Under the pieces are notes generated by a model, which saw only the letters and a list, made by a program, of their open reading frames with translations, had not been told where the DNA came from and searched no databases. Positions 18,259-37,661 of a stretch of 64,000 bases of DNA are shown one piece after another (positions within the stretch are counted from its first letter, which is position 1; each line of letters begins with the position of its first letter). Position numbers and translations under genes: made by a program. Origin of the DNA: Lepidodermella squamata (Eukaryota; Animalia; Gastrotricha); NCBI GenBank assembly GCA_047495785.1, contig JBLDXI010000019.1, forward strand, positions 806,001 to 870,000, read 5' to 3'.

Positions 18259-18445
18259 AGTAGTAAGGATGGGAACTTTGGATCAGTAATAGCAGTACGG
18301 CGATTTTTACTATAGCCGTTTGGTATAAATATACGCAATTTGCGATCAGTAATGGCAGTACGGCGATTTTTACTATACCCGTTTGGTATAAATATACGCA
18401 ATTTGGGGATGAGTAATAGCAGTACGGCGATTTGTACTATAGCCG
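18259..18445 (+). repeat. Left terminal inverted repeat (22-bp terminus plus about 2.6 copies of a 63-64-bp unit)
   Basis: Units start at 18281, 18344 and 18408. Reverse complement matches 37477-37661. Confidence 0.92.
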
Positions 18446-18711
18446 CTTCTTGTCAATATACCTTCGTTTTAACCCACTGCTATGATTTCACCTAACTAAA
18501 ATAAACAAATCTTCGTTTTTTCACCTGTTATGAGCTAAACTAATCATTTTTACACTGCTTCTTTAGTGCAGCTGCAATAGAGCCCTTTTTCATTCACACA
18601 AACACTTTTTATTAGTCTTAACGTTTCAAGCAATGAATTTATAGCTGGGATAAGTCTTATCAGTTTTTCTATTCATTTGTTCAGAGATTTGTAGCGGCTT
18701 GATTGGAGGGG

Positions 18712-19215
18712 TTAACGTCCAGATGAACCGAATCCGTTATCGCCACGGGTCGAATTTGCTGCTAGAGCGTTTTTCAATGGCCCCGTTACCGTTACTGCAG
18801 ATTCTAAGCGACCATATTTTAAACACACCAACTGGGTAATACGGTCGCCTATTTTAATCTTGTAAGGTGTTTTGCTGTTGTTTGCAAGGCAGACTACGAT
18901 TTTTCCGGTGTAGTCGGCGTCTTTAATTCATGAAAAATACAGATATTCATTAGTAATTTTCATTATTATTTGCTTCTTACCTATTACTCCAGCGACCGTA
19001 TCGATTCCATGGTTGATGCTCATTCCTGATCGACTGAATAGTTGTCCATAATATCCTCGTGGTAAACAGATTTTAATATCAGTTTGAATCAGTCCCCTGG
19101 TTCCAGGTTGCAGTGTCGTCTCTTCTGCTGAATAGATGTCCCAACCCACAGAGCCTTTAGTATGCTTTGTCGGTTCTTTAGCTTTGTTACTTGTTAGCTC
19201 TACCTTCAGCTTCAT
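18712..19215 (-). CDS. dut: dUTPase (2 exons: 19215-18981, 18920-18712; 147 aa)
   Basis: Removing the 60-nt GTAAGA...AAG intron gives all five motifs: GWDI, SRSG, GVIDADYTG, GDRITQL, RGDNGFGSSG. Confidence 0.93.
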
Positions 19216-19649
19216 ATTTTATAATTTATATTGTTACTGAGGTTCGATTTTTATGTGAGCGGCTACCTCCTTTCAGGCATATTGTTTTTGTAATTCAATC
19301 TTCCTTAAAAATGCATTAGGGCCTTTAGCTCTGTTGACCCCTCAGTGCTGGCTTTAATGCTTTTCATCAAAGATTCTTGGTATTGTATACATCCTCCTTA
19401 ATTGCTGTCGGTAATTCAATAAGAAAACATCATGTCAATAAATCTTATACATCCTCCCTAATTAAACAATGCGATTTTTTACTTATCAAAATAAAAAGCA
19501 ATTAGGATTTTTTACCCTTTACGGTGTAATTACCTTAAACAATTCAAACAAAACATCTCCCTGTTTTTTCCTTTTATGGAAATATCACTCAGACTATTTA
19601 AGAGAGATGCTTCAAGAATACACTTAGCATATTTCTTGAAGCAAGCTGG

Positions 19650-20414
19650 ATGCATCCTAAAGTCTACCATTTCGGCATAGTCGGCAACATTGGGGCGTAA
19701 GTCTCATATACTCCACCGAATAGAATTCTATTTAAAGTCTCTTGTTTTAGCGGGAAATCAACCTTAATCGAGGGTCTCACTAATCTACCTTCACTCAACC
19801 GTAAACTTCAGGGATATACCGCGTGGCCAATTTGCGAGCCTGTTCATCGTTGGGAGTCCTTTACTGATGACGATAAAACTAACATTTTGAAAGATTACTA
19901 TCAGATGAAAAATGCGTTCAACTTTCAAATTGTAGCCACGAGTGATATGTGCGGCCTTTATTCAGCCCCTAACCACAAACCTGAAATCTACGGGGCGCAT
20001 ACTATCGTTCTGCATGATCGAACGCCCTTCTGTTCTAAAAACGTCTTTATCCCATGTGCGTATGCATCCAAGCGCATAAATTCTATCGAATATCACGCTC
20101 TCATGAATTTGTATGATAATTTCGAGCCGAATTTTGTAAAAACTGAAGCTATTATTTACTTGCGCTCCTCTCCCCAAATAGCTTGTCAAAGAGCCGTAGC
20201 TAGAGCTCGGGGTTCTGAAATGCTATTATCACTGGATTATTTACGCCTCGTACATGAGTTTCATGAAAAAATGTGTACTGTTGAGACTACAAACAAATCC
20301 CTACCATGTCCCGTGCTTGTTATCGACACTGATAATTTGAATGCCTCTGAGGTTCTAAAGCAAGCTTCTCAGTATGTTGCCTCTCTTATCACGCCTGTAA
20401 TCTCTCAGACTTGA
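19650..20414 (+). CDS. Deoxynucleoside kinase (dNK/TK2 family; exons 19650-19696, 19751-20414)
   Basis: A 54-nt GTAAGT...TTTTAG intron splits the P-loop GNIGA|GKST. Also EPVHRW, FNFQ, DRT, IYLRSSP and lid RARGSE. Confidence 0.9.
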
Positions 20415-20424
20415 ATCCTCATTG

Positions 20425-20787
20425 ATGGATCCAACAAGACTTGTGCTCTCGAACAGCCAGATTTTAGACGCTGAATCTTTGCAATGTCCAATTTGTTTAT
20501 CTATCCTACTTAATCCTATTCAAACGCGCCCCTGTGGCCATTTATTTTGTACTAAATGTGTTCTCGCTATTTTTCAAAATTCAGCTCGAACAGTATGTTG
20601 CTGTCCACTTTGCCGCGAATCATTAACAGGGAAAGATTTCGTTAAACCCCCTGTAATTTTATCGAACATTATCTCGAATTTGATTTACAAATGCCAATAT
20701 TCTGATAAAGGCTGTCCCATTACTCTAACTTATGACCTCATTTTTGGGCATGAAAAGTTATGCCAATATAAAGAACCCATCCCTTAA
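20425..20787 (+). CDS. C3HC4 RING finger protein with TRAF/SINA-like zinc finger (putative E3 ligase)
   Basis: CPICLSIL...PCGHLFCTKC...CPLC followed by CQYSDKGC...GHEKLC. Confidence 0.85.
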   Translation: MDPTRLVLSNSQILDAESLQCPICLSILLNPIQTRPCGHLFCTKCVLAIFQNSARTVCCCPLCRESLTGKDFVKPPVILSNIISNLIYKCQYSDKGCPITLTYDLIFGHEKLCQYKEPIP

Positions 20788-20829
20788 AGTTTTACATTCT
20801 TATTTCATTAGATTTAATTTTCAATAATC

Positions 20830-21351
20830 ATGGCTGAGGCGATAGTAGAATCTGCTAACCAGACAGTCAATCATCACATGTCTAGTAACTTGGTCATTCA
20901 ACAGCATCCTCAGGATTCTAATCTCATCTACATAATGACTGATCGCAAAGATAAGAACGATAAGCCTAAAAAACTCGCCTTTAGACAAGACGAATTTCTT
21001 AGCCAGTTCGTTCCTTATTTTCGACCGCCGAATGATGCTTGGGTTGCTCAGGCTCAACTTGCCCTGCTATCTCACAACACAGGCTTTAAATTTTCGATGC
21101 ATGAATGCAAAATTGAAGTCTGTGTCTTTGTGCCATCATTTTCACCGATTCTTATAGATATACGCAGGTTTTATCTGGATGCTAAAGGTATTTACTTCAA
21201 ATTTACAGTAATAGCAATCTTTTTATGATTTAACTTTTTAGGAAATAAACAACCCTCAAGACAAGGAGTCTCTCTTGATGCAGCTCAGTTTCAAGACCTT
21301 GCAACTGGGGTGTTAACTGTTGCAGCGATGATTGAAACAGCCAATGAATAA
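20830..21351 (+). CDS. PC4/Sub1-like ssDNA-binding/coactivator domain protein (exons 20830-21187, 21242-21351)
   Basis: Removing a 54-nt GT-AG intron gives ILIDIRRFYLDAKGNKQPSRQGVSLDAAQFQDL, matching the PC4 core consensus (LIDIREY...KPGRKGISL...QW..L). Confidence 0.75.
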
Positions 21352-21537
21352 GCTAACACAAAACTTGACTAAAATGACTTACTGAATATTTATTTCAATC
21401 TATCCTTGTAATAAAGTTTTACCTCTTCCCAAATTCGATCAATTTTAAATTTTTAATCTTAGATTGTTATGGATAACTATAGTTTACAATACTCATTTAT
21501 TCGAAGTAATCGCCTGATTCATTCTACAAAATTCAAA

Positions 21538-24500
21538 ATGTTTTCTGTGGAGTACTTCATTCAGCCCGTAACATCCGACTTTGCCTCAACCTACATCAAC
21601 AGATATGGCCAATCTTCTAGTTCGCTTGGGCCGATGATTCAATTGTCTGGTGGCGCTGATGAACCTCGACTGGATAATATTCGATCATTTGTGCAGAACG
21701 TACCAGCCGACCAGGTGGCTAATATTGATTTGGAGACCCGCTTCAATATTCTGGCCAACTTCCTGTTCGATATTGTTGTAAATATCCATCGTGATTTACC
21801 TGTGAATTCCTTCTGCCGGCTAACACTGTACCACCCCGACTTGAAGATGCCTCTTAGCCTACCCTTCATGAAACGCGATCGGTTGCTGGAAATTTCAATT
21901 TTTGATCAACTGAGAAAAATATTACAGAGTAATGAAGAACTCTCATTTGCTGGTCGGTGGACAATTCGTCTCTGTGTCATTGATAACCCCAATGCAGATC
22001 TAGGTCAAATTGTTGGTGGTTCTCGGGCAGAGCGGGCTATAAACGAAACTTTGGACAAATTTTTTCTTCGCTCCAAATCGATCGTTAGAATCGGAGCGCG
22101 CAAGAATGAAACGAACAATCTTTGCATGGGCAGAGCTCTCATCACTGGAGTGGCTTTGGCTCACATGAAGGCGAATCCTACGGATCCATCTCTTCAAGCA
22201 ACCTTCAAATCGATACGTAGTACGCGAACCAATCGTCAATTTCGCGAAGCCACGGCGCTATATCAGAAAGCGGGCTTACCTCTCAACCTTCCAGCCTACA
22301 ATCTAGATGATCATTACTCAGCCCTGTGTTCGGCTATCGATCCTGAACATAATACTTACAGATTCGTAGTATACTCGTACGAATCACAGGATGTTATTAG
22401 GGAAATCCCAGAATTTGATCATCGCGTAAGCCTTGGGTTGCTTCCTGTTGTTCTACTGGTTTATCGCAACGACGTCTCTCAGCCCAACAGTCATCATTTT
22501 CATGTCATTGCGAATCTCAACTTTATGAAGGCCACTCTTAGCAATGCACAACGAATATGCCCCACTTGCTTTCAGACGAAAACGAGTACGGCTGTGCACA
22601 GATGCAAGTTGGCATGCTCTTCCTGCCGTAATTTTTACATGAAAAACCTGAATTTCACTTCTTTTATCATTAATATTATTTTAGGTGTATCAGGGAGCAT
22701 TTGCCGTGTGATTTCCAACACAGACCAACAAAACTACACGCGGTGTCCGCAATGTCGTGCAGGTCTGATGTTTTTAACCTTTTCATTATTATTCAGCTCT
22801 TTTTATGTTTTTAGTTTTGTATAGCGAACGTTGTAAGCAAAACCACAAATGTGCTAAAAAGAATCCATGCTTTAAATGCGGGAGGAAATTTGTACATTTT
22901 CTCAAGCATGAGGCTATGTGTCCCGGGCGGCGCTGTCACATTTGTCAGGAGCCTTTGAAAGCCAGCGACGAAGAAAATGGCACACACTTCTGCTTCATGA
23001 CTCCCTTGGTATACTCATTTTTTTCAGTCCAGCTTTTTTCAAAATACTGTGGTTGGTGTATTTTTAGCCCTTGAAACCGGCGAATAAACTGGAACGTTAT
23101 CGTAACCTAGTTTTTTGGGACACTGAGACATTTTCGCCATCACTTGCTGATAACAACAATGAGTTCCAAGTATGCCTTATCGTTGCAAAGGTCGTATGCA
23201 TACCTCACTGCATCGAAGCGAGGATTCAGCGATGCCATTCTAGTTGTGGACTTCATATTTTTTATGGAAGTCGTCCTCTGGAGGATTTCGTAAACTGGGT
23301 GCTTCTACCTATGAATTACCAGTCGATTTATTTGGCTCACAACTCAGCCAATTTCGATTCCTTATTATTACTGAAAGAAATTCAAACACGATGTTCTAAA
23401 GTGAAGATTCTTCAAAGGCAGGGATCTCTACTATGCATTGATTTCAAACAACAAAAAATCAGATTTTTGGATTCATATCTCTTTTTTCAATGCAGATTAA
23501 GGTAGGTTACCTAAGAAACACTAAGAAACTACATTGCTTACAGGTATTTGTTCAACAACAGGGATTTACCAGCAACAATGGGAATCCCAGACAAGAAAAC
23601 CTTCTTTCCTTACGTCTTATGCACTAAAGAAAAGTAAGTACATCATCAACTTCTTGAGCTATTGTGATTGAATTCGCTGTAATCCTTCGAGTTTCAATCT
23701 CGAATTCCCACAGCTGCCTAATATGATCTACTATGAGCCTGACAAAATGTCTCCTTCTGAAAGAGCAGAATTTCTAACTTTCTACAACGAAAACAAACTG
23801 AAACGGTTCAGTGTTCGCCACACGTTACTGCAATACTGCATACAGGATTGTCTAGTTTTGGAAAAGGCGTCAATCAAATTTCGGGCGCTAATGCTGGAGT
23901 TGTGTTCTACTGATGCCTTTAAAGAATGCATCACACTAGCTTCTCTCACAAGCACATGCTTCCGCAAGCTGTTTCTTACGAAGGATACATTACCTGTCAT
24001 CCCGACCGCTGGCTACTGTGGCAAGGATTCACACAGCAGGCTCTCGATAGCTTTTCTTCAATTTCTGATGGAGTCTGACCCTGAAACTTATGGTTCAATG
24101 AAACACGCTCAGAACTCACGTCAAGAAGTTCGAATATCTATACCTGGCCACCGTTATCCTTATCGCGTCGACGGTTTTGTTGCACGTCGTGATAAAATTC
24201 CGAGTGAACCCGATCTGATTGTCGAGGTTCATGGTTGTGCTGTCCATGGCTGCTTGCAATGCTTTGAGGCCTCACAACTAAATTTTCTATCTGGACAACC
24301 AAACGGCGTAGTTTACAAGCAAACCTTGGAACGTGAAGAGTTGTTTCGCTCGAATGGTTACATTCTTCAAAGCTTTTGGGAGCATGAAATTAGAGCTAGT
24401 TTCAAACAACACCCGAGAGCACAGGAGATTTATGATAATCTCACAATAGCTAATGTAATGGAGAGCCGTTCGTTTTTCTTTGGAGGTAACTGGAGGTTTT

Positions 24501-26324
24501 CCCTATTTAATCTTCGCGGGATTAAAACATCATGCCTACTTTTTAGGGCGGGTCGAAGCTTTTCGTTTAATGGCTATGATTGCCGAATCACACTCAACTT
24601 CAGGCGACCAAAATTTGGAAAAGATTGCTCAAATTTGTAAGGAAAGCGGGATGCAAACCAAGGACTTCTTATTTCCATCGCCCGATTATTCTATAATTTC
24701 CGCCGACTTCAACTCGTTATATCCAAGCTGTATGATGGATGGCTACTATGCAATAGGACCACCTAAAGTATCCACCTTGGATCTCAGATTAAACAACGAG
24801 AAACTGCAGGAGATTTATTCAAAGGAATCTTTTTTTGGTGTCGTACAAGCACGCGTAAGCTCTTCGCATCTACATATCGTCTCCCTGCTTTCATCATCAC
24901 CACATTATTTTGCTAGGTATTAGCGCCGAAAAACATCTGGCTACCTGTACTCTGCTTTCGTAGTAAACAAAACAAGCTCGTGTTCTCATGTTGCTATGCT
25001 TGTTCGTCGACTGCAAATCCAAACTTGTGCGTTTCAAGCCGTGAATGCACCCATTCTGATTATGAAAGGTCCTGGATTGGTTCGTATTGCTCTGTGGAAC
25101 TGAAGTACGCTACAGATGTTCATGGCTACAGATTGCTGGAAGTCTACGAGGTTAATAATTTTGTTTAGCCAACTCATGCATGGCTTCTATCAAGTTATTT
25201 TTTTTAGATATGGGAGTTCAAGAAGAGCAATACAATTTTCAGAGATTTCATTAAAAGATTCACCATTTTGAAGGCCGAATCCTCCGGCTGGCCGCCAAAC
25301 TGTGCTACTAGTGAACAAAAAGCACAGTATTTGGAGCAATGGGAACGCATTGGTATAACGATTGATAGCACCAAGTTGGATAAAAAGAACCCTGGGTTAC
25401 GCGCGATCGCCAAATTAGTTTTGAACAGCTTTTTTGGTCGATTTGCTATGAATTCTAATCTAGAGAGAACAGATTATATCAAATCCCCGTTTCTGCTTCA
25501 GCAAATGCTAAATAATCCAGCTTTGGAAATTGTGGATATTCAACCACTAGGCTTACTCATCAACTCTGATGATGTCTCTCGCTTGCGAATTGTAACACGG
25601 CCAACCAAAGATGCCGACGTTCCAAATGGATCCACCTCAGTTATAACAGCGGCCTTCGTAACAGCTAATGCTCGTGTGAAACTGGCTCGTGAGCTGTACC
25701 GAGTCGGCCCAAAAAGTGCTATCTACAGCGGTTAGAGAATAGCGCCGCTTATGCTACCAACATCTCTACGTTTTTTGTCTTTTGTTTTAGACACGGATTC
25801 AATTTTTTGCCTTCAAGGGCCTGGAATTACTAAAATTGAGTTCACACCCGTTCTTGGCGGCTTGGCGGATCAGCTTGATACAGGGCAACGCATCATTGCA
25901 ATGGTTGTACTGGGCTGTAAGGCATATGCCCTACTTTTTGCTGACGGCAAAGCCAAGCTAATGTTAAAGGTAATTGCTACTTGTTGTTACGCCCTCTGTT
26001 TTTTATTATTTACGTCACGCGCAGGGAATACGTCAAAGTTTTCATTCACGCAGTCTTCTCGATTTTTTCTTGTTCATCAAGCATGTAATACAAAGTCTCC
26101 ACGATAACGAAACCAGCGGAAGCGGGGGCCGGGGTGATAACAACAAAAACAGCGTCATCGCTGAATTGGATCAGACTCAGTTTAAAAAAGTGCATACTCC
26201 GTTATCGGAAATTCATTGTGTTCATATAACAAAAAAGATTCGTTTAACCTATGATAAACGTTGGCTACGCCCCGGCGATGCTTCCTTTCTAACTTATCCA
26301 CATGGATATAGCGCTGATCAATGA
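21538..26324 (+). CDS. polB: Protein-primed family B DNA polymerase (about 1400 aa; 10-11 exons) with N-terminal TP/OTU-like region and Vsr-like insertion
   Basis: Inferred introns: 22628-22684 (in-frame, tentative), 22763-22814, 23009-23067, 23502-23561, 23634-23691, 24486-24546, 24855-24916, 25151-25207, 25731-25790, 25970-26024. The spliced CDS (4206 nt) is open. Motifs: ExoI FWDTET, ExoII AHNSANFD, ExoIII YCIQDC, FFGGRVE, A DFNSLYP, B KLVLNSFFGRF, C YSDTDS, KGI, YDKR. Confidence 0.93.
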
Positions 26325-26331
26325 TCGATTA

Positions 26332-27483
26332 TTACATGAATAAACTCCAAAACCCTGTGCCAGCTTGAAACTTGTTGATTTTATTTATCTTACGCTGTGA
26401 CGTTCTTCGGAAAAGTTTTCCAGGTGGTGATATTTGTGTTTGATCAGTCATAGAACGTGGCTTTCTACCGCGCTTTTGACCCTTCCGTGGCGTTGCCGCT
26501 GCAGTTGCTGCTCCAGCTAGCTCAATTTCCATCGGTTCAGCGGCAGCGGCTTCTTCTTGTCTTTCTGCTTGATTATCATCATTATCAGCACCATCTTGCA
26601 GCTCTTCACTATTGCTGCCGCTGCTGTCCTCATCGCCGCTAAACGAAGACGACCCTGCTGTTGTGTTGCTGTCTCGAGGGGCCTGGGGGGTGCGCGCGCG
26701 GGGGGTCCCTCCTCTCGTAGGCAGCTGCTCATCATTAGGCCGATCAACAACAACATCATCGTGGCTGAGGACGGTCGTGGCTGCAGCGCTAGAAGTCGAT
26801 GATGTTTGCGGGGCAGCGAATAGAAAATCCATTTGAAGATCATCAAATTCATAATTGCTGCTATTATCAGTTGAAGGTCGTGGCGTTGTATTAGGTGAAA
26901 ACTGCTGCTGAAAGCCGCCAATACCCGAATCTCTGTTATAGTTGTTATAGCTAGGCCCGGCCGCTTGACCAAAATTACTAGATGTTAATTTAGTAGGTTG
27001 TTGGCGCGCAAGTTGTTGTTGCTGCTGTTTTTTTGGAGGAGGAGGAGGAGGAGGAGAAGAAGCAGAAGGAAGCGGCGGCGGCGGCAGCGGAGGAGGAGGA
27101 GGAGGAGGAGGAGGAGGAGGAGGAGGAGAGCGCGGCCTCGATTCTGCTCGATCTGCTGGTGCAGGCGACATTGGAATAGCGGCTGGCGGCTGGCTACTGC
27201 CTTGTAAAACTACCAGCTTCTTCAAATTCATAATCTCATGCATGAGTTCGTTACGTTTTCGCACTAAATCGGCTGAATTATCACTACTACTAGCGTTGTT
27301 TATCACATCCCGGTCTAAAGACTGTAATAGCTGCACTAGTTTGAAAAGCAGAGGATTGCTCAGCAATGTTTTAGCAGCAATCAAGTCGCTCGCGTTTGGT
27401 TGTTGTTGTTGTTGTTGTGCTGGAGTTGGCCCAGGTGTCGCAAGTGGAACAATAGTCATGCGCTGTGCATAGTTTCGCTGCAT
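26332..27483 (-). CDS. Polinton Pro/Gln/Ser-rich low-complexity protein with basic C-terminus
   Basis: 383-aa ORF in the structural block. PolyPro from a (GGA)n tract. Ends QAGTGFW, resembling an adenain-type cleavage site. Confidence 0.65.
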   Translation of the reverse strand: MQRNYAQRMTIVPLATPGPTPAQQQQQQPNASDLIAAKTLLSNPLLFKLVQLLQSLDRDVINNASSSDNSADLVRKRNELMHEIMNLKKLVVLQGSSQPPAAIPMSPAPADRAESRPRSPPPPPPPPPPPPPLPPPPLPSASSPPPPPPPKKQQQQQLARQQPTKLTSSNFGQAAGPSYNNYNRDSGIGGFQQQFSPNTTPRPSTDNSSNYEFDDLQMDFLFAAPQTSSTSSAAATTVLSHDDVVVDRPNDEQLPTRGGTPRARTPQAPRDSNTTAGSSSFSGDEDSSGSNSEELQDGADNDDNQAERQEEAAAAEPMEIELAGAATAAATPRKGQKRGRKPRSMTDQTQISPPGKLFRRTSQRKINKINKFQAGTGFWSLFM

Positions 27484-27486
27484 AGT

Positions 27487-27900
27487 TTAGATTCGAAGAA
27501 GCCTCTTGAGTTCTGAATAATCAAACTTTAGCCTGGGTGCAAAGGATTTCAATACAGTGGGTAAAACTGCAAAAAAGGAAGCTTTCGAAGCCTTATTTCG
27601 CCTATTGTTCTTGTTGCTATTAAGGCAGTGTCGAATAAAAACTTGCCGGTTGTGCTCGACCAAATTGACACCTTTTTGTTTCAATTTAGCCAAATCAGGG
27701 GCCAGAACAGTACTAGTGCTGCGAAGCCAATACAAGGCGCAACGGCTAAGAAATCGTATAAGGCTAACAGAGCTAGTTGCTAAAATATCAGCACGCTGAC
27801 CGGGGTGAGCATGCAATAACCATTTCAATGCAAGAAAAAGCCGCCGTTTTTTATCAAGACTGAACGATGGTGACGTTGCTGAGGTAATAACTTTATTCAT
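27487..27900 (-). CDS. Conserved basic Polinton ORF (PW-like/core-like)
   Basis: LLHAHPGQRADILATSSVSLIRFLSRCAL resembles, from memory, the small conserved basic ORF next to the ATPase in group 2 Polintons. Confidence 0.55.
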   Translation of the reverse strand: MNKVITSATSPSFSLDKKRRLFLALKWLLHAHPGQRADILATSSVSLIRFLSRCALYWLRSTSTVLAPDLAKLKQKGVNLVEHNRQVFIRHCLNSNKNNRRNKASKASFFAVLPTVLKSFAPRLKFDYSELKRLLRI

Positions 27901-28795: not shown

Positions 28796-28798
28796 CCT

Positions 28799-29362
28799 TT
28801 ATAATCTAACGTTACAGGGTTTTATTCTTTCAAGTGGTCTCATAGATAGACCATAGTGGGAATATAATGTATTAAATTTATGATAAAGTACACAGTCTTT
28901 TATAAGCAAATTGTTCTTTGATCCAAGCTGATCAAAATGCCTCAAAATTTGGTGCATGTCTTTACCTCGCGCTCGAAGCATGCTGTAATATAGAGCCCAT
29001 AAGCCGCAGATTTGTGAAAAAACATGCTGGTAAGACCTATTGCAATGAATGTACGGCACTTCTGTTTGGCTATTCGCTTTCAAAAAGTTGTCGATATAGA
29101 GGTTATGATAGGAAGGGGAAAGGTTAAGGCTATCGAAAAACTCACAGGGCTCATCAGGATGCTGTGCGCTGTGAACAAACAGTGTGACCCAGTGCTTTCC
29201 TGTAGAATTGTATACATTTCCTGTGTTACAGATAATCAATTGTGGATTATTTTTCACAATAGGAAGCTGCTGTGGTAGCTGATCAGCGGCTACAACAAAA
29301 ATGTCAAACTTTTTTAGTACTGGATCAATCCGGATGAAATCTTCCAATTCATTGTTGTACAT
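28799..29362 (-). CDS. Adenain-like (Ulp1-fold) maturation cysteine protease
   Basis: GKHWVTL (His), EFFDS (Asp), YQHVFSQICGLWALYY (Gln/Cys). Confidence 0.9.
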   Translation of the reverse strand: MYNNELEDFIRIDPVLKKFDIFVVAADQLPQQLPIVKNNPQLIICNTGNVYNSTGKHWVTLFVHSAQHPDEPCEFFDSLNLSPSYHNLYIDNFLKANSQTEVPYIHCNRSYQHVFSQICGLWALYYSMLRARGKDMHQILRHFDQLGSKNNLLIKDCVLYHKFNTLYSHYGLSMRPLERIKPCNVRL

Positions 29363-29372
29363 GAAAAACTGC

Positions 29373-30863
29373 TTAAGAATCAACAATTACGTCACGCGTT
29401 CGTGTGATCTTAAAAAATTTGAATTTTAAGGCAATTTTAATTTTATGAAAAAAGATGATACCTCAAAAACTGAATCAGTTTCAGTTAATACTAACAGCTG
29501 AGTAACAATTGTTGTTTGAACAGCAAAACTCAACTCTACTCTGCAGGTACCTGTGCGTATAACTGAGTAATTTTGCAACGAGGAGTTGCGCGATAAATCG
29601 AAACCAAAAATTGTGAAGCCATTAATAAACTGATCCATAGTTAACGTAGATGCCTTGAAAGGGTTATCTGGGTTGATAGCATTGAGAAGCTCCAAATAGA
29701 CTCTGGTGACATCTCCATTTGCAAAATCCATTTCCAAGGGAGCTGTTGAGTGATGTAGTTCATTGCCCAAATAAATCGATATTCGGGATAGCTGGCTGTG
29801 TAATGCATTCAATGGATTTTTACCCGCCGTTCCATTCAGGGCGGAATCTTCAAAAAAACAGAAAAACATACGCCTTGGAAGCTTACCATTAATACATTGT
29901 GGTATCTGTTAAACCATTAGAGTTTTAAAAATTGACTTAGAAACGCGCGATGAGCAAACTTACACTGTAACTCAAAACACTACTTGGTATGTGAAAAAGC
30001 CTTGTTCGAACTCTCATTATAGGATATTTGGCGTTAGTTTTTTCCAGCGCACGCGTATGAGCAATCACTATGTCCGGCGACACAACAACAGCCCGGGCAA
30101 TAATTTTTGCAGATTCAATGACGATTGAGTGAGGATCAGCTGTGCTCGGCCCAACCAAAGCAAAATTGTTAGATGCCCTATAGAGCTTGATGCGGACTTC
30201 AACATTAGGTAGAAGTAGCCTATTACACAGCATAGGATCTGCAAACAGGCGTCCCAGGGTGCACACAGATTTCCCGCCCTGAACAATTTCCAACCGTTTT
30301 TTAAATCCCTCGTTTGAATTGTCAAAATTATCCAGTTTTTTAGCTGTATCAGGATACCAAAATTGTGTCTGTAATATCGTGTTTTTTGCATCAGTATTAT
30401 GAGACAAAAGCGTTGAAATATAGGCCCGATAAGCGTATAATGAATTTTGTTCACTTAAAAGTTGCCCATTTAGTGAAATCTCGCATGTTTTGAACATTGT
30501 GTGGTGGGCTAAACAAAGCGGGGCTTTTTGTAAATTTGTAGCCGAAAGACTAGCCTTATACTCGTTGTATGCATCGTCAGCTTCGCCAGCATTTTTCTTC
30601 CGAGCTTCAGAAGGGGTTCTAACTACTTTCCACTTGAGCATCAGTTGCATGCGTGACAGACACAAATAATCATTGTACGGGCCGATTTGAAACTCAATCA
30701 GGTTCGGTGAACTATTAAGAGGGGCAATTGGGTAAACATCTATACTTATTTGGTTTTCTTCAGCAAGCTGTGAAGGCGGTACAGTAAATAAATCTAAATC
30801 TGAAGATAATACTATTGAAGAGGCTGAGGCTGGGTGAACAAAATTATCTCCAAAGCCTTCCAT
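29373..30863 (-). CDS. Major capsid protein (double jelly-roll, hexon/PY-like; exons 30863-29964, 29905-29462, 29408-29373; 459 aa)
   Basis: SDLDLFTVPPSQ, LYAYRAYISTLLSH, AKYPI, GKLPRRMFF, KNPLN, GFTIFGFDLS, GTCRVELSF. Introns of 58 and 53 nt restore the frame and the C-terminus FE|ITRTRDVIVDS. Confidence 0.9.
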
Positions 30864-30896
30864 TACAAATTTGAAGAATCAAACGCAGCAATGGGC

Positions 30897-31439
30897 TCAA
30901 GACGCTTCAAATAGCACTGATTTAGTTGTTGCGCGTCTTTTCCTTTTATAAGCCTTTCTTTTTGTAGTAGAAGCACGGCGCCTACGTTTTGCAGTCACAC
31001 TACTAGTTTTACTAGGGCCACGACGACGGCGCCTTTTACGGCCACCTCCACCGCCTTGATGTTGCTTCAAAGCCGTTTCAGCAATATCCTTAGCCATGTT
31101 TAAGGCGCCTGAAGTGCCATGACGCTTAAGGGATTCGGTAAAACTAGGTCTAGCGCCCTCAGGTTGTTGCATATCACCTAATATTTTTTGGCCAGTAGAT
31201 AATGCTTGTTGAAAAATAGACGGAGCAATTACTGGGAAGAAATTTCTGAAAAAGGCACCTAATATATTTCCTATTCCCTGACCCCTATAATGATATGGAA
31301 ATTGAATTGTTGCCCCACGGAAATGGTCCAGGTTAGCACCCGCTCCAGCTCCATAGCCTGCTATCAGCGGGGAGGAGTGTTGGCGGAGAAAAAACTGCTG
31401 GTACTTGTCAACGTTTTGGTTAGAATAAGCTAGGGGCAT
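30897..31439 (-). CDS. Polinton virion core / membrane-lytic-like protein (amphipathic helix plus Arg-rich tail)
   Basis: YRGQGIGNILGAFFRNFFPVIAP amphipathic segment after a GxG site, then QGGGGGRKRRRRR basic tail. Confidence 0.7.
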   Translation of the reverse strand: MPLAYSNQNVDKYQQFFLRQHSSPLIAGYGAGAGANLDHFRGATIQFPYHYRGQGIGNILGAFFRNFFPVIAPSIFQQALSTGQKILGDMQQPEGARPSFTESLKRHGTSGALNMAKDIAETALKQHQGGGGGRKRRRRRGPSKTSSVTAKRRRRASTTKRKAYKRKRRATTKSVLFEAS

Positions 31440-31477
31440 CTTCGGTAATATTAATAATTAGAACTCAGCCACTTATA

Positions 31478-32698
31478 TTAATATAAGGCTCCGGTTTTTC
31501 GGCGAATATGAAGTAGCAATACAACTTTGCTACCATCCACAAAATCGATCAATGCCCCGTTATCGCGGCGGATTTGAACTTGAATTGAATCTATAAAATT
31601 GGCTTTTAAAGGTAAATATAGGCCCGAGTTATAAATCACTGTAAAATGTGATGACAAGTCTGAATTTGCCGTAGCAGAAGCCATCGTAGAATAGGTTATC
31701 ATTCGAAGGAGGCTAGCTTGGCAATCTCCAACAAAAACATCCGCTGCAACTGAGCAGTAAATGAACAGTGAGTTATTGCCATAATTCAACTGAATGTTGT
31801 ATTGAGCTGTAGCACTTTCTTCATAGCATGCATAAATAAAGGCAGGCGGTAAATCATTATCTTTGGTGATTACTGTTTGCTCAGAAAAATCAAAGTGCTG
31901 TGCTGAATTTACGCCTTCTTGATTTTCTACCGCCGCTGTCTCATTATTTGCATCCTCCTTAAGTTTTGGTCTGCTAGAAAGCCTAACAATCCCAACTGAG
32001 TTGAATAAAATGTGTGGATTTTCACGAATTTGGTGGCTCATATTCCACGCATATGCCAAGGCATACGTTGACTTTATATCAAAAGTGGAAACTTCATTAA
32101 ATTCTGGCTCGTCATTTTTTGGGGCCTTGGGAAAAATGAAAACTCCAGACGGTGTATTCTGTTCTATTGGAGACACAAAACCTAAGAGGCCAGCAGAATC
32201 TGAAGGTATAAACATAGAATATGGCCATTTACAGGTAATTTTAGTTTTTTTGTTGACTGAATCATAATGAGCAAAAATAGAGCCATTACTACTTGAGATG
32301 GATATTTTTTCATTAAAGTGATCGATTAGTTTGGTTATATTCGCAAAATATTCACCTCCGAAATTTACTTTGTTAATAAAGCCAGTTTCCCATGGATTGT
32401 TGAAACTTTTCATCCGATGTGGCAAAGAGCCAGGATTTGTTAAATAATTAGCAATAATGTCGTTTTTAAAAGATTTCAGCCAGTTACAATCAAGCACATA
32501 GACTGTATGACGATCAATGCTACTCCACCTAACAGGAATTGTAGCCTCAAGTAGGGCTACTTCATAAGCACGGCAATCGGGTACGCAAATTGGGACAGGG
32601 AGAGCAACTTGATAATCCGACGGAGTATTCGCCGGATGTTGAGAATATGAGGCATTCGAGGGTAAATAAATAAAGAAGTCCTCCTGGATGCTAAGCAT
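31478..32698 (-). CDS. Minor capsid protein (penton, PX-like)
   Basis: N-terminal FFIYLPSNAS...NTPSDYQVALP...YEVAL and C-terminal SLFIYCSV..VGD..SLLR..YLPL..IDSIQVQI...LLHIRR. Confidence 0.85.
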   Translation of the reverse strand: MLSIQEDFFIYLPSNASYSQHPANTPSDYQVALPVPICVPDCRAYEVALLEATIPVRWSSIDRHTVYVLDCNWLKSFKNDIIANYLTNPGSLPHRMKSFNNPWETGFINKVNFGGEYFANITKLIDHFNEKISISSSNGSIFAHYDSVNKKTKITCKWPYSMFIPSDSAGLLGFVSPIEQNTPSGVFIFPKAPKNDEPEFNEVSTFDIKSTYALAYAWNMSHQIRENPHILFNSVGIVRLSSRPKLKEDANNETAAVENQEGVNSAQHFDFSEQTVITKDNDLPPAFIYACYEESATAQYNIQLNYGNNSLFIYCSVAADVFVGDCQASLLRMITYSTMASATANSDLSSHFTVIYNSGLYLPLKANFIDSIQVQIRRDNGALIDFVDGSKVVLLLHIRRKTGALY

Positions 32699-32894
32699 TT
32701 GTTATGTTATCCTTATCTATCTTTTCTAAAGTAAGGATTGCGCTGTTGCCAAAAGGGGGGAGCTTAGTTTTGAATAAATAGTTTGAAATTTCTATAAGCC
32801 AAACGGTTATTAGAAGGAAAAAAATGTAGGCCCCTACACGCACAGATGGCTTTTGTAGGAAAGCTAAGAGTGGAGTCGTAGGAACTCTATTCAT
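32691..32894 (-). CDS. Small putative membrane protein
   Basis: 67-aa ORF packed between integrase and penton with overlapping start/stop codons; one hydrophobic segment. Confidence 0.5.
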   Translation of the reverse strand: MNRVPTTPLLAFLQKPSVRVGAYIFFLLITVWLIEISNYLFKTKLPPFGNSAILTLEKIDKDNITNA

Positions 32895-34102
32895 GAGGCC
32901 AAGGTTTTGATCTCGTTTGCATCAATCCAACTAGCGGCTTCAATCGGCCAGTTTTGCCATTTCACAAGAGCCTGTTTCTTGCCATTTATAGTGCGATGCT
33001 TCAGAACTTTTTCTATTAAATATGTTTCTTGCGGATGTGCTATCTGAAGCTGCCAATCGTAAAAACTACCTTGAATACGCTTATTCAGAGTATCACGGAG
33101 ATAATACTTGTCGGGGATGGTACAAGTATCTATGCGGTCGATAAAAAAATATTCTTCAGTAAAAATGAAATCTCCTTCTTTGTGAAATAAATCCTTTACA
33201 CGACTAATTCTAACACAATCACCGACAGAAAAAGTCGGTTTGTATAGTAAATTCTTGCGCTTTTCAAGCATCAATTGATCTCTTTTTCCAAAAACATTAT
33301 TGTAAGCAACCAAATTTATAGGATCTTCTGGGGAAGCTAGCCATAATTCTAACGGGGCAACCCTAGTGCTGCGATTTTTCATTTGATTGTAAGACGCTAA
33401 GAAAAAAGGTAAGTAATCGATGTAACGCAGCGTATGATTTGCAATTTGATGCCTCGAAATAGTTCTACGAAGCCAACGGTTGAAAATTTCTATGGGTGAA
33501 CACTTGAACATGGAGGTTGTAGTGTAATAATAAACATTGAATTTTTTAAATATTTTTTTAGCTTCTTTGTTGATAAATTCTCCGCCAGAATCTGTAGTGA
33601 AAGAGCGGCAACGCAAATCAGGTGTTAGGCTGCTCAAAAAATTACTGATCTTCTCAGCAGTGTAATTTCCTTCTTTGTTAAGTAAGGGAATACAGAAAGC
33701 ATAACGCGTAAAACAGTCTTTGATTGTAAGTAAATAGCGGGTTCCATCATTATCTTGGCTTGAATCTTGAACTTCAAGAAGATCACCTAGAAAGAGGTCA
33801 CTTCTAGCATAAACTTCATATTGCATGAATTGCTTCCGGTTTCTTACACTTAGTGGTTTATATAATGAATATGTTCGATCATGGCTCATAATCTCAGCTA
33901 GTTTTTTATGAGTAAGGGAATTTCTCAGCTCTAAGGGTAATGTAGCTTTAAGTGTTGAGTATAATCTGCGCAGGCCTTGAAATGATCCAACATGTTTCGG
34001 ATCATTATAGAAGCTCAAAACAAACGATTTCAAGTCTGACCTGTGGTTTATTTTAGCATCTCCTTCAGCTAGACGTCTCGCATTGTGTTTATTACGTGGC
34101 AT
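32891..34102 (-). CDS. int: Retroviral-like (RVE) integrase with C-terminal chromodomain
   Basis: LGDLLE...YLLTIKDCFTRY, TTDSGGEF, PIEIFNRWLR, FSVGDCVRIS. Chromodomain YLIEKVLKHRTINGKKQALVKWQNWP...SWI. Confidence 0.95.
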   Translation of the reverse strand: MPRNKHNARRLAEGDAKINHRSDLKSFVLSFYNDPKHVGSFQGLRRLYSTLKATLPLELRNSLTHKKLAEIMSHDRTYSLYKPLSVRNRKQFMQYEVYARSDLFLGDLLEVQDSSQDNDGTRYLLTIKDCFTRYAFCIPLLNKEGNYTAEKISNFLSSLTPDLRCRSFTTDSGGEFINKEAKKIFKKFNVYYYTTTSMFKCSPIEIFNRWLRRTISRHQIANHTLRYIDYLPFFLASYNQMKNRSTRVAPLELWLASPEDPINLVAYNNVFGKRDQLMLEKRKNLLYKPTFSVGDCVRISRVKDLFHKEGDFIFTEEYFFIDRIDTCTIPDKYYLRDTLNKRIQGSFYDWQLQIAHPQETYLIEKVLKHRTINGKKQALVKWQNWPIEAASWIDANEIKTLAS

Positions 34103-34105
34103 GAC

Positions 34106-34375
34106 CTAATTCTTCTTTATAGCTAATTTACGGCAAGTAGGGACAACCGAACAATTAGCCATGTGGCTAAATAAATCACCGTTTAAGTGGAATAATAAAT
34201 CATTTATATTATATAACATCCGCTCAGTAGACTCGACAAGTTGCCGCAGGTGAAGGAGTTCGGCTTGAGTATTGCGAACTTCCATAACAGCGAAAAAGCT
34301 GATTAAAATGGTAACCAGGGATAGCAGCAATAGGATCGGTAAAACAGCACGCGGAATATCTGTTGTTTGATGCAT
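34106..34375 (-). CDS. Small TM/coiled-coil protein
   Basis: Hydrophobic helix followed by a heptad-like segment; 3 bp from the integrase start. Confidence 0.5.
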   Translation of the reverse strand: MHQTTDIPRAVLPILLLLSLVTILISFFAVMEVRNTQAELLHLRQLVESTERMLYNINDLLFHLNGDLFSHMANCSVVPTCRKLAIKKN

Positions 34376-34539
34376 AATAAATTACGAAGACTTTAAAAAC
34401 GGGGAAATTTACCGATAGCCATATTTTTATTTCTGCTGCGAATTTTGAAAATTGATAGATAATGATGAAAGTAGAAATAATGATTTTAGCTTAAAAAAAG
34501 ACGGCACGCGATTAATCTTCCCTCATTCATTAAATCATT

Positions 34540-35319
34540 TTATTGTTGTTTGATATACAGAAAAAAAGGCGCCAATTTAACAAATGCTATTTTTATAAGA
34601 GATAACGAAAAACAGCCGCTCATAATCATTTTTCCAGTGTGAAACAGTGTGGCAGATACATTTAACTTTGGTTCATTTTCATTAGTGCTGACTTTGGAGA
34701 AAACACGTATACGCAACCCAGGAAAAAATTCTGGTTGGTAAACGCATATTTTAGGAAATTGAAAAGCTAGCAGGCTAAGATTGACAGTTTTATGTAAATC
34801 GTAGAACAATACTATATTAGTAATTATTGGGTCACGGATTATCAACCGTCGATTAACAATTTTTCTGAGTGTAGCTTGAAGAACTCCAAAAGCAGTAACA
34901 CAATTCGAGGCTGTTTTGGTACCACTACAAATTATAGCTCCGGATGAAAATAATAAAAACGTCGCGTTAAAAGCAGGTACTTTATAGAACAAAGCACTCG
35001 ACATTTTTTTTGGGTTATATTTTGCACAAGGTAAAATTAGGGCTAGACTATCTAAATTAAATAGAAAATTTGACCTTGATTTAGCCATAATATTTGAAAT
35101 AGAGTAATCAATATCATATTGTATATTATTTACTTCCATATTTAATGGTGGGGATTTCAATAGAAAAAAAGGTTCAGTGCTAGATTGTAGCTTTAAATCA
35201 ACAGGATAGGATATAGTCAAATTTATGATCGTGGTCGACTGTGATGCGGCTGATTGAAGGCTTGTAACATACTTGATTTCAGCTGTTTCTGTTTGAACTT
35301 TGCGATAGGTTGAGGGCAA
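34540..35319 (-). CDS. TATA-binding protein (TBP)-like protein; start uncertain (first ATG of the core at 35139)
   Basis: Two TBP repeats: SNIMA...AKYNPKKM...ATFLLFSSGAIICSGTK and TNIV...VYQPEFFPGL...ATLFHTGKMIMSG...AFVKLAPF. Confidence 0.88.
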   Translation of the reverse strand: MPSTYRKVQTETAEIKYVTSLQSAASQSTTIINLTISYPVDLKLQSSTEPFFLLKSPPLNMEVNNIQYDIDYSISNIMAKSRSNFLFNLDSLALILPCAKYNPKKMSSALFYKVPAFNATFLLFSSGAIICSGTKTASNCVTAFGVLQATLRKIVNRRLIIRDPIITNIVLFYDLHKTVNLSLLAFQFPKICVYQPEFFPGLRIRVFSKVSTNENEPKLNVSATLFHTGKMIMSGCFSLSLIKIAFVKLAPFFLYIKQQ

Positions 35320-35651
35320 ATCATGACCAAAAAAGAGGCGACAGAATCTTGCTTTCGTGACTCATGATTGGTAATTGGAACAGCTGGTTTATTTTTCGCC
35401 TTGCATGGCGTTTTCGCCGATTTAGCAACTGATTTCTTCTCAGTACCTATGACTTTTTTCTGAATTTTATGTTTAGCATTGCGTTTCGGTTGATTACGAA
35501 CCGCAGTTTTTGCTAATCTAGAGGCTGATGTTTGTTCAACAGGTTCCTTGGTAAACGTACTCGTATTCGGTTCATTCAGGTTTATTGGTACGAAATCATT
35601 GTTAGAAAAAAACAATGGAGAAGCCGGAGATGAATTGAAGAAAGCTTCCAT
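35223..35651 (-). CDS. Basic low-complexity ORF, possibly the N-terminal part of the TBP-like gene
   Basis: Lys-rich ORF overlapping the TBP frame; junction unresolved. Confidence 0.4.
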   Translation of the reverse strand: MEAFFNSSPASPLFFSNNDFVPINLNEPNTSTFTKEPVEQTSASRLAKTAVRNQPKRNAKHKIQKKVIGTEKKSVAKSAKTPCKAKNKPAVPITNHESRKQDSVASFLVMICPQPIAKFKQKQLKSSMLQAFNQPHHSRPRS

Positions 35652-35819
35652 AAATTCAGTAAGAAGAATAATATTCAAAGTTCTTGCGTTTGAAATGAAA
35701 AATGATCGAATGACGGAAGCCGGCCGCGGTGATTGGTTGGAGTTGCTGAGCCCCAGAACCTTCTGATTAGGAATGAATAAATAACAAAGGCATTATATAA
35801 ATAAAATAAACTGACCAAA

Positions 35820-36626
35820 TTAGGTCGAAGAGCTGTTGTTGAAAGGTAAGACGGTAGCGACAGGTTGTAGTGCGATGGAGCGTTGCATGATGCCCGGCCA
35901 TTTACTATTCGCACCTTCCTGCTGACCATTAAGAACATCGATGACTGATGCCCATGGAATTTTCTGAGCGTGTTGATAGGGTGGAGGTACGACGTTCTGC
36001 ATTTCTACTGAGACCCTACGACCTGCCCGAAGTAAAAGGTAGAATATGTGCCGCAGGTTTACGCTGACACCATTAAAGTTTTTTAACAAATCGTAAAATA
36101 AATGTTGGATGTAGATATATCGGCCTTCGGTGTAGGTAGGGTGTGCCGTTAGGCCATACCAGAAACTTTCTTCCAGGCCAGACACAATAATAGGGTTAGG
36201 GCTATCGTCGAGGCAATCATCCAAAAGGTAATCACTTTCAGTAAAAATAATTGAGTGACAAATGGACGACCATAAATCATCCTGGCGAACAAGGAGCGTG
36301 GTAGTATCATTTAGGATGCTCTTCCATAAATCATGCCCAACGATGGAAGCACAGGTAGCTAAATTATATTCGGCAAAATGTTGAAAATTCGTGCCATCGT
36401 GGGTTGATGGGAAGAGACGAGCAACGGCTCTTTTGTAGCCGAGATAAACATGATCGATAGTAATATGTTGGCCTTTCGAGTTGGCAATCAAATCGAATAT
36501 GGCGACTTCAGCGAATGTAATGCGTCCAGAGAGGGTATTTAGTGATATATTTAATGATTTCGGAGGAAAAAGTAAATCTTCTCGGTAGAAAATCGCTTCA
36601 TAAGATTCATCATAGCCAATAATCAT
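35820..36626 (-). CDS. Hypothetical Polinton protein (268 aa)
   Basis: Long ORF with globular composition inside the element; no recognised motif. Confidence 0.6.
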   Translation of the reverse strand: MIIGYDESYEAIFYREDLLFPPKSLNISLNTLSGRITFAEVAIFDLIANSKGQHITIDHVYLGYKRAVARLFPSTHDGTNFQHFAEYNLATCASIVGHDLWKSILNDTTTLLVRQDDLWSSICHSIIFTESDYLLDDCLDDSPNPIIVSGLEESFWYGLTAHPTYTEGRYIYIQHLFYDLLKNFNGVSVNLRHIFYLLLRAGRRVSVEMQNVVPPPYQHAQKIPWASVIDVLNGQQEGANSKWPGIMQRSIALQPVATVLPFNNSSST

Positions 36627-36710
36627 AGCAACTTATTTGACCTTGCTATCCCTACCTTAATCTTTGCTTTTATTCGATTTTCCTTGAGTAAAAAAATGTT
36701 TCTTATATTT

Positions 36711-36950
36711 TTTAGATTACAGTTAAGTTGGATTGATAGGAGAAAGTAAAGTTTATTTACAAAACAAGTTAATGGACATATCAGGAAAGAAAGGAGTATT
36801 TATAAATGCTAATGGCCAAAGTAAAAAATATTTATTATATTTTAGATTAAAGTTAAGGGGGATTGATAGGAGAAAGTAATGTTTATTTACAAAAAAGGTT
36901 AATGGAAAGTAAGGTGTATTTATATAAGCTAATGGACAAAGCAGGAAAAA
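36711..36950. repeat. About 130-bp tandem duplication in a divergent intergenic region, with TATA-like boxes
   Basis: TTTAGATTA.AGTTAAG..GGATTGATAGGAGAAAGTAA.GTTTATTTACAAAA at 36711 and 36841. Confidence 0.8.
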
Positions 36951-37019
36951 AGATGAGCTAGCTTGAGTTCTTAGATTACTGTATCTAATCAAGTATCTTT
37001 TTGGAAACTAAGAAAATTG

Positions 37020-37295
37020 ATGGAAGCAGAAGACATGTAAGTTTGGTTCTTTTTTAAAAAATCTTGAATAAATTCTGTTATGTTTAGTCGTGAACGCTTA
37101 TATCAAGCACTGCTAAGCATTGACCATCTGCAACGAGCAATGACAGCAGCTATAAACGAAATGTTGAACACACAATTGGAGGTTGAACAATTGATCAATG
37201 ATGCATCACGATTTATGATAGCAACTCGAGCAAGAGATCAGGCATGCAGCCTAGATTGTGGTGATTGGAATTGTAATTACTGTTACAAAGATTGA
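37020..37295 (+). CDS. Small coiled-coil protein with C-terminal Cys cluster (exons 37020-37036, 37088-37295)
   Basis: 51-nt GTAAGT...TTTAG intron gives MEAEDIRERLYQ...CSLDCGDWNCNYC. AATAAA at about 37305. Confidence 0.6.
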
Positions 37296-37476
37296 AAAAT
37301 TAAAAATAAATTATCATGTGTGCATTTTTTATATTACAAATTAATTCCCAGAAAGAATGCAAAAGCATGACTCATAATAGTTTTAGAAAAAAAGTATGCC
37401 CGCTGTATATTTTATCATAAACATTGCGTACATTTATGGGGCAACGGATAAAACGCACTTATATATTTATGTGAAA

Positions 37477-37661
37477 CGGTTATAGTAAAAATGACCGTAG
37501 TGCTATTACTGATACAACGCTCGTATATTTATGCCAAATGGCTATAGTAAAAATCGCCGTACTGCCATTACTGATCCCAAATTGCGTATATTTATACCAA
37601 ACGGCTATAGTAAAAATCGCCGTACTGCCATTACTGATCCAAAGTTCCCATCCTTACTACT
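37477..37661 (-). repeat. Right terminal inverted repeat
   Basis: Reverse complement of the left TIR; inner units diverge. Confidence 0.92.

Follow-up and report, generated by a model that had tools for sequence, protein, structure and literature searches.

A full-length Polinton from the gastrotrich Lepidodermella squamata with host-sized introns in its genes

Polintons replicate by protein priming from their terminal inverted repeats (TIRs), and their integrase inserts them with a 6-bp target-site duplication (TSD). We analysed an element of this kind in a 64,000-nucleotide (nt) stretch of DNA from the gastrotrich Lepidodermella squamata (contig JBLDXI010000019.1 of assembly GCA_047495785.1, positions 806,001 to 870,000 of the forward strand; hereafter the window, whose numbering is used throughout). 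The element lies at 18259-37661 and is very probably a full-length, likely recently amplified Polinton whose genes are cut by GT-AG introns of host size, 15 of 20 of which are spliced, with the other five predicted to be so.

Animal Polintons or Mavericks, also called 'adintoviruses', share with this element a size of 15-25 kb, TIRs, a 6-bp TSD, and genes for protein-primed DNA polymerase B (pPolB), rve integrase, A32-type ATPase, cysteine protease, double jelly-roll major capsid protein (MCP) and minor capsid protein, according to the available parts of PMC8097293, PMC8502044 and 10.1101/2022.07.12.499685. The same parts describe 'eight conserved and intronless ORFs' (open reading frames) in intact vertebrate Mavericks with the remark 'No introns were observed' (PMC8097293, citing Kapitonov and Jurka 2006 in agreement), and 'intronless' core genes in nematode Mavericks, with introns in cargo genes only (10.1101/2022.07.12.499685). 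An earlier note on this DNA, made from its letters alone, had stated that Polintons are usually described with few or no introns, and these papers agree. The present element, in contrast, has 14 introns in pPolB, ATPase and MCP (four of them predicted); the intronless core, which the papers use as a description and not as a definition, is not found here. The element also adds genes for a TATA-binding protein (TBP), a deoxynucleoside kinase (dNK), dUTPase and a RING-finger protein.

No description of an animal Polinton with intron-rich core genes was found in the literature searched (Repbase, supplements and subscription papers were outside its scope). Spliceosomal introns in Polinton core genes are likewise absent from the available parts of 10.1101/2023.08.22.554363, PMC12220804, PMC8502044, PMC5718144, PMC9341512, PMC11244446, PMC11296320, PMC6431247, 10.1101/2024.03.25.586562 and 10.64898/2026.10.13.758929; PMC12220804 reports group I introns in Polinton-like viruses. 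From the portions at hand, the survey in PMC10120064 used a prokaryotic gene caller since endogenous viruses 'do not contain introns', and PMC8097293 counted as intact only elements with intronless ORFs.

Dinoflagellate eupolintoviral proviruses resemble the present element in being full-length Polinton-type elements with intron-forming sequences; in the available text of PMC12166617, their inserts belong to repeated introner families, most being as old as the host or younger, and about 25% fall in coding regions. The introns described here differ in that 19 of 20 are coding, they are mutually unrelated, they occur in high-depth copies, 15 of 20 are seen spliced, and the host is an animal. Mirusviruses have many GT-AG spliceosomal introns, also in virion genes, which have been discussed as a ratchet towards nuclear reproduction, and 0.65 introns per kb in a mirusvirus isolate is quoted as high (PMC12768974, available parts), compared with 1.03 per kb here. 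They belong to the HK97 capsid realm and have protist hosts, large genomes, many intron-encoded endonucleases and an often lost polymerase (same source), whereas our element has retained its polymerase and carries introns that encode nothing. Adenoviruses have a related pPolB, protease and double jelly-roll capsid, and are nuclear, transcribed by RNA polymerase II (Pol II) and heavily spliced. Their splicing is mainly alternative leader-to-body joining with few introns inside coding regions, and they have no integrase; the element described here has constitutive-looking short introns scattered over its coding sequence. This analysis adds RNA-type support for 15 introns, predicts others in the capsid and packaging genes, and brings in a second lineage, under purifying selection, whose intron positions are not shared with the element.

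Boundaries of the element and splicing of its genes

The element is 19,403 nt long, begins with AGTAGT and ends with ACTACT. The first 140 nt of its TIRs are identical at 135 positions (about 96%). Seven contigs of the DNA run X1 represent empty sites, joining 18252 to 37662 and skipping 19409 nt; as this length equals the element plus one TSD, the Polinton ends are confirmed. The terminal features are as follows.

18253-18258, no strand: left TSD CATTTC, the same 6 nt as at 37662-37667
18259-18398, plus strand: left TIR, with the AGTAGT end and internal 63-nt repeats
37522-37661, minus strand: right TIR, matched to the left TIR
37662-37667, no strand: right TSD CATTTC, a perfect copy of the left TSD

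By each testable defining feature the element belongs to the Polinton/Maverick group (eupolintovirus type), the penton gene being a lead. The intact Polinton that the earlier note had placed at these coordinates is borne out by the ends, TIRs, TSD, empty sites and gene set.

Twenty GT-AG segments of 51-62 nt (mean 56.3, median 57, GC 0.29) were found, 19 in coding sequence and one in a 3' untranslated region (UTR). They comprise ten in pPolB, two each in the ATPase and MCP genes, one each in the dUTPase, dNK and PC4-like genes, one in each of two small ORFs, and 35763-35815. Exon-by-exon frame tests gave no internal stop, with all exons stop-free in the predicted frame, in accord with the earlier reading that introns of 51-62 nt restore open frames. 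That reading, of 17-19 introns plus a candidate at 35763-35815, was essentially right in number and in its counts for pPolB, ATPase, MCP, dUTPase and dNK; two small ORFs and not one are interrupted, and the candidate sits 4 nt behind the stop codon of gene 35820-36626 and restores no ORF. Its PC4 label is unconfirmed, as neither exon of the 20830-21351 ORF matches PC4 in Pfam. The intron-bearing genes are listed below.

18712-19215, minus strand: dUTPase, 147 aa; intron 18921-18980 (60 nt); Pfam halves 2-70 and 69-129
19650-20414, plus strand: dNK, 236 aa; intron 19697-19750 (54 nt); Pfam dNK
20830-21351, plus strand: 155-aa ORF, PC4-like label unconfirmed; intron 21188-21241 (54 nt)
21469-26324, plus strand: pPolB, 1424 aa, 11 exons, start codon uncertain
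22628-22684, 22763-22814, 23009-23067, 23502-23561, 23634-23691, plus strand: pPolB introns 1-5
24486-24546, 24855-24916, 25151-25207, 25731-25790, 25970-26024, plus strand: pPolB introns 6-10
27952-28795, minus strand: A32-type packaging ATPase, 244 aa; predicted introns 28656-28712 (57 nt) and 28204-28255 (52 nt)
29373-30863, minus strand: double jelly-roll MCP by predicted fold, 459 aa; predicted introns 29906-29963 (58 nt) and 29409-29461 (53 nt)
34106-34422, minus strand: 87-aa ORF with a hydrophobic stretch; intron 34360-34412 (53 nt)
35763-35815, minus strand: 3' UTR intron of gene 35820-36626, 53 nt
37020-37295, plus strand: 74-aa ORF; predicted intron 37037-37087 (51 nt), from frame and GTAAGT...TTTAG signals

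All 20 segments have GT-AG ends, with GTA donors in 15 and YAG acceptors in 17. By their ends, donors and acceptors, and by the removal of 15 of 20 from transcript-like contigs, they have the features of U2-type spliceosomal introns. In pPolB, GC is 0.43 in exons versus 0.34 in introns. The size match to host introns that had been claimed earlier was supported: the first intron of the host TRIM gene is 56 nt long (13628-13683), and a scan of host genes in the window for introns of up to 200 nt, predicted from DNA, gave 78 frame-restoring candidates, among which 11 of the 13 with GC of 0.40 or less and at least 77 open codons on each side are 49-64 nt long. Most of the 78 are spurious, and since frame-restoring GT-AG pairs are so common by chance, the case for introns rests on RNA and homology.

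The RNA-type evidence comes from contigs, X2 and X3 being judged cDNA-like from their joints and poly-T ends, and covers the 15 of 68 joints that were listed. Loose poly-T ends at 18447 and at 35566 mark X2 as cDNA-like, as does an adapter-like end, presumably a template-switch oligo, at 21284. Four listed joints correspond to introns 18921-18980, 19697-19750, 21188-21241 and 35763-35815. All four were found in X2 and the last three in X3, while the DNA runs had none (depth 0 in X1 and X4). In pPolB, a 4731-nt X2 contig (record 11) maps to 21568-22627 and 26023-26879, breaking at the first donor and last acceptor of the predicted introns. The 2814 nt between these two parts stand for 3395 genomic nt, and the deficit of 581 nt is exactly the sum of the ten pPolB introns. 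X3 record 16 breaks at the donor of intron 9. Intron 34360-34412 has both edges marked, at 34413 and 34359, by breaks in X2 record 12 and X3 record 18. Fifteen of the 20 introns are therefore missing from transcript-like contigs (four by listed joints, ten by the 581-nt sum, one by its edges), and these 15 are spliced. Other acceptors tried for pPolB intron 2 (22824, which breaks the frame) and intron 4 (23543, which makes an insertion relative to homologues) were rejected, and only the chosen set sums to 581.

Homology agrees with these junctions. Ten pPolB pieces tile a profile of 41 relatives in order, DNA_pol_B_2 (PF03175) falls in order on four pieces, and intron 9 interrupts the YxDTDS motif. 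Three intronless homologues align unbroken over junctions 4-10; the picture is less clean at junctions 1-3, which fall in a zinc-finger region with more gaps. In the ATPase gene, which matches Pfam Pox_A32 above cut-off, intron 28656-28712 splits Walker A, and the intronless homologue L020, the only one that the fetched loci yielded, is unbroken at both junctions. The three MCP exons fall on a profile of 94 full-length homologues at 6-278, 279-426 and, weakly and at the end of the profile, 421-434 (exon 3 iE 1.1), so that exons 1 and 2 adjoin at 278/279, and homologues are contiguous over junction 1. From homology or frame, splicing is predicted as well for the introns of ATPase and MCP and for 37037-37087.

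We then considered whether the introns belong to this insertion or to its family. The eight longest X1 pieces listed (1.1-1.6 kb, depth 1533-2186) have 0-1 differences from the element and no gaps, and bridge 11 of the 20 introns, all of which they retain. Because high-depth DNA contigs carry these segments, the introns are a property of the family and not indels of one insertion; copies lacking the segments, which the earlier note had named as evidence against its reading, are not what these contigs show, and the other counter-evidence that it named, a lack of spliced reads, is answered by the spliced joints in X2 and X3. The X1 depth is 1,533-2,772 in bins inside the element versus about 100-128 at flank positions 18040 and 37847, a difference that suggests over ten near-identical copies or else extrachromosomal DNA. 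Recent activity is supported by this near-identical DNA at high depth together with the perfect TSD and the intact catalytic motifs. The potentially active, spliceosome-dependent lineage that had been proposed is thus supported by spliced joints, near-identical intron-bearing DNA and intact motifs.

The integrase, penton and protease genes were each confirmed as single ORFs, as had been noted.

28799-29362, minus strand: cysteine protease, 187 aa, intronless; weak Pfam Peptidase_C48 match (E 0.037), His/Asp/Cys motifs present
31478-32698, minus strand: likely minor capsid protein (penton), intronless; a lead from ESM Atlas features
32891-34102, minus strand: retroviral-type integrase with C-terminal chromodomain, intronless; Pfam rve and Chromo, D-D-E motifs present

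Over the 18 genes, the 19 coding introns show no uneven distribution (permutation p 0.30). Their placement is compatible with chance, so these three intronless genes need no special explanation, and selective sparing of them was rejected as not significant on the same test. pPolB, with 10 of the 19, is mildly enriched (p 0.016, post hoc).

The organism label of X2 (B) differs from that of X1 and X3, and 143 of 169 X2 records are at least 99% alike to the element. This likeness under a second label could reflect a synonym, a sister species or horizontal transfer.

Relatives and a second intron-rich polymerase lineage

The element is divergent, with best identities of 29-41%. Its relatives are mostly single ORFs: 104 of 150 MCPs reach at least profile position 410 in one ORF, and 41 of 66 pPolB loci lie in one stop-free piece of at least 850 aa. 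The 46 shorter MCP homologues end scattered over profile positions 239-389, with no shared intron position among them. The other 25 pPolB loci consist of 18 short ones and seven with the profile spread over several ORFs. Among these seven, L046, L047 and L049 are decayed, L062 and L056 appear spliced, and L023 and L052 are the remaining two.

L062 (618-6138) and L056 (1-2671) are metagenome contigs that represent a second intron-rich pPolB lineage. In L062 we predicted 14 introns, 53-387 nt long, which leave every exon stop-free; 13 of them are GT-AG, and the donor of the remaining one is GG in L062 and GT in L056. One intron reaches 387 nt and one mini-exon has only 14 nt. L056 shares nine of nine compared intron positions with L062, at an intron identity of 0.47-0.62 (shuffled 0.44-0.53). 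Across 7/8 equal-length exons (357 codons), the two are 86% identical in amino acids, with dS 0.94 and dN/dS 0.08. Since all nine positions were kept at this dN/dS, an intron-rich pPolB can persist under purifying selection. None of the L062 positions coincides with the ten in the element's pPolB, the closest pairs being separated by a few codons, as within YxDTDS, where they lie on either side. The lack of shared positions implies that introns were gained at least twice or turned over completely, and points to repeated and independent intron gain in pPolB. Both contigs hold the polymerase alone and are presumably from Polintons. In a quick-search pPolB tree (43 of 46 rows after exact duplicates were dropped), the element's pPolB sits on a very long branch (4.2), and the L062 lineage may or may not be its sister.

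Lifestyle of the element and origin of its introns

The MCP gene bears on whether the element could form particles. The model of MCP exon 1 has a pLDDT of 88.8, and Foldseek matched it to vaccinia D13, iridovirus and PBCV-1 capsids with E values of 4e-7 to 3e-5; by this predicted fold, 29373-30863 is identified as encoding a double jelly-roll MCP. A word-indexed homologue search with exon 1 yielded none among 970 candidates, and the MCP alignment has no stretch conserved enough for locus scans. The penton candidate has an Atlas feature score of 0.97 to viral clusters, one of them named Sputnik minor capsid V18/19, at a sub-threshold recognition value.

We propose that host Pol II and the major (U2-type) spliceosome make the mRNAs of the element in the nucleus, the introns being recognised through their short length. 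The spliced pPolB would then copy element DNA to DNA from the TIRs, and the integrase would reinsert it with the 6-bp duplication. The encoded TBP is predicted to help in recruiting the host transcription machinery. Introns would have been gained one at a time, after the split from intronless relatives. As a cycle of its own without a reverse-transcription step offers no ready route to intron loss, introns would accumulate in a ratchet that binds the element to nuclear transcription.

Several points weigh against the reading of the element as a recently amplified Polinton with spliced genes. Neither X2 nor X3 is recorded as RNA. What confirms the ten pPolB introns is their total and outer edges, plus the intron 9 donor, and not each intron singly; the two ATPase introns, the two MCP introns and 37037-37087 are not among the joints listed. 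Contig depth is not a copy number, and could come from extrachromosomal DNA. No relative was found that is close enough to date the introns or to give a dN/dS for this element itself, and the long pPolB branch could mean relaxed selection. The search itself favours intronless relatives, as databases hold single-ORF gene calls.

A wider claim is tentative, and we give it somewhat less than an even chance. Animal Polintons may repeatedly and independently have become intron-rich and may form an overlooked, still infectious class whose polymerase, ATPase and capsid mRNAs need the host spliceosome, whose intron length is matched to the host, and which ORF-based surveys miss. If so, the rule of the intronless Polinton would be partly an ascertainment artefact, and near-identical copies with sister families would allow de novo intron gain without reverse transcription to be followed in a compact natural system. 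The RNA-supported counter-example described here means that elements which are intact are overlooked or taken for fossils. With two lineages whose intron positions do not overlap, Polintons become a testable model for intron origin and for a ratchet in DNA-replicating parasites, and the intron-trap idea extends from mirusviruses to the presumed root group of adenoviruses and of many other eukaryotic DNA viruses.

Plausible, if short of probable, is a spliced and mobile element that is an intracellular transposon only, with silent or vestigial capsid, penton, protease and ATPase genes and no particles. Its intron gain would be the mark of an existence restricted to the nucleus of the host; this view agrees with ours on splicing and differs on lifestyle alone. 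It draws on the lack of any virion-gene joint among the joints listed, and on the statement in the available part of PMC8097293 that Maverick particles have not been observed. The penton-integrase region has little or no cover in X2 and X3, and contig cover is not evidence on expression. On the other side, the genes for MCP, penton, protease and ATPase keep their full length, contain no stops and have intact motifs, the MCP exon is confidently modelled as a double jelly-roll, and mirusviruses with introns in morphogenesis genes are reported to make nuclear particles (PMC12768974, portion available).

An introner burst, in which intron-generating transposons hit the element, is unlikely. It would explain the narrow range of 51-62 nt and has a published precedent in dinoflagellate eupolintoviruses (PMC12166617, available parts). 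No pair among the 20 introns exceeds shuffles (best score 14; shuffle maxima 10.5-15.5), however, and no clear copy of an intron lies elsewhere in the window (best local scores 11.5-19). The junction repeats of 0-3 nt are below TSD length, and the intron size is simply the ordinary one of the host. A possible variant is an old burst that diverged beyond recognition.

It is very improbable that we are looking at a single resident or domesticated copy that gained its introns after insertion and is now expressed like host genes. Splicing of the accessory genes and pPolB and the host-like intron size would fit such a copy, but the perfect TSD, the 96% identical TIRs and the empty sites make the insertion too young for twenty later gains, and the high-depth contigs, at more than ten times the depth of the flanks, carry introns.

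A decayed element with frameshifts and insertions bounded by GT and AG by accident, an idea helped by the ease with which frame-restoring pairs turn up in a loose scan, is refuted by RNA-type joints at exact coordinates and the exact 581-nt sum, and is further opposed by chance (a shuffled insertion looks like GT..AG in 1771 of 20000 trials with generous slack, hence about 3e-11 for ten of ten in pPolB alone) and by the truly decayed relatives L046, L047 and L049, which show frameshifts of 1-2 nt and stops instead.

Other genes of the element and the surrounding DNA

The remaining genes of the element are intronless or carry only the 3' UTR intron given above.

20425-20787, plus strand: RING-finger protein, intronless; Pfam zf-C3HC4
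26332-27483, minus strand: Pro/Gln-rich ORF, 384 codons, intronless; no Pfam match
27487-27900, minus strand: basic ORF, 137 aa; no Pfam match
30897-31439, minus strand: 180-aa ORF with a basic C-terminus; no Pfam match
34540-35139, minus strand: divergent TBP, 199 aa, intronless; Pfam TBP E 3.4e-24, two repeats
35223-35651, minus strand: Lys-rich ORF, about 143 codons; its end overlaps the open frame upstream of the TBP start
35820-36626, minus strand: 268-aa ORF; no Pfam match, best Atlas score 0.89, not significant

Pfam matches to VipE and colicin immunity (E 0.03-0.04, below cut-off) were taken as chance. The integrase matches PF00665 with E 1.7e-5, below the curated cut-off, and has five homologues at 26-32% identity, all with PF00665; none of 22 stretches in viral contigs gave a relative of it.

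The TBP gene was added by this analysis from Pfam and PDB matches and was not in the earlier note. Its top PDB matches are the TBP chains 1d3u, 1pcz and 1ais (E about 2e-19), which we take to be archaeal TBPs, ahead of eukaryotic TBPs. A TBP in a Polinton-type element is unusual and has a precedent in PMC8502044, where a TBP-like gene is named in the legend of Fig. 5 (on MELD viruses and elements akin to them, in the section on non-animal hosts, as far as the available part goes). The TBP frame is open for 74 codons before its first Met and overlaps the end of the Lys-rich ORF in a different frame, at a T run. One X2 contig spans this overlap without a gap, and a frameshift fusion is possible.

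The X2 contig with spliced pPolB (26023-26879) runs beyond the pPolB stop into the convergent ORF 26332-27483. This suggests that the two genes have overlapping 3' ends; the contig does not prove one transcript. Between two divergent genes, 36693-36990 holds a tandem repeat of about 130 nt (84 nt at 85% identity, with a third partial copy) with TTTTAG and GTAA-like signals on the plus strand, which could represent mini-exons that are spliced or a repeat within a promoter.

The Polinton is inserted in an inverted-repeat element of about 210 nt (arms 18200-18259 and 37759-37818). This element (18200-18258 plus 37668-37818) resembles a miniature inverted-repeat transposable element, has X1 depth of up to about 50,000, and has many empty copies. 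Two paralogous intronless genes with ANF-receptor domains (class C GPCR-like) lie on either side of the insertion, at 15374-17809 and 38186-40594. The window is animal DNA, with ligand-gated ion-channel domain, Sushi, F5/8, ankyrin, ANF-receptor-domain and TRIM-like RING genes. Three tandem intronless ligand-gated ion-channel-like genes lie at 41976-46436 (minus strand), with Neur_chan_LBD confirmed in one. About five genes for Thr-rich surface proteins with Sushi domains follow in tandem at 47194-63950, spaced by 3.1-4.4 kb. Inside this tandem array, 58010-58487 is a head-to-head interstitial TTAGGG/CCCTAA array with a 157-nt perfect palindrome (TTAGGG arrays at about 58.1-58.4 kb) that looks like a telomere fusion site. 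Near the other end of the window, 289-1518 (plus strand) is an intronless DUF4419 gene (Pfam E 1e-24) in an animal genome, and horizontal acquisition is possible.

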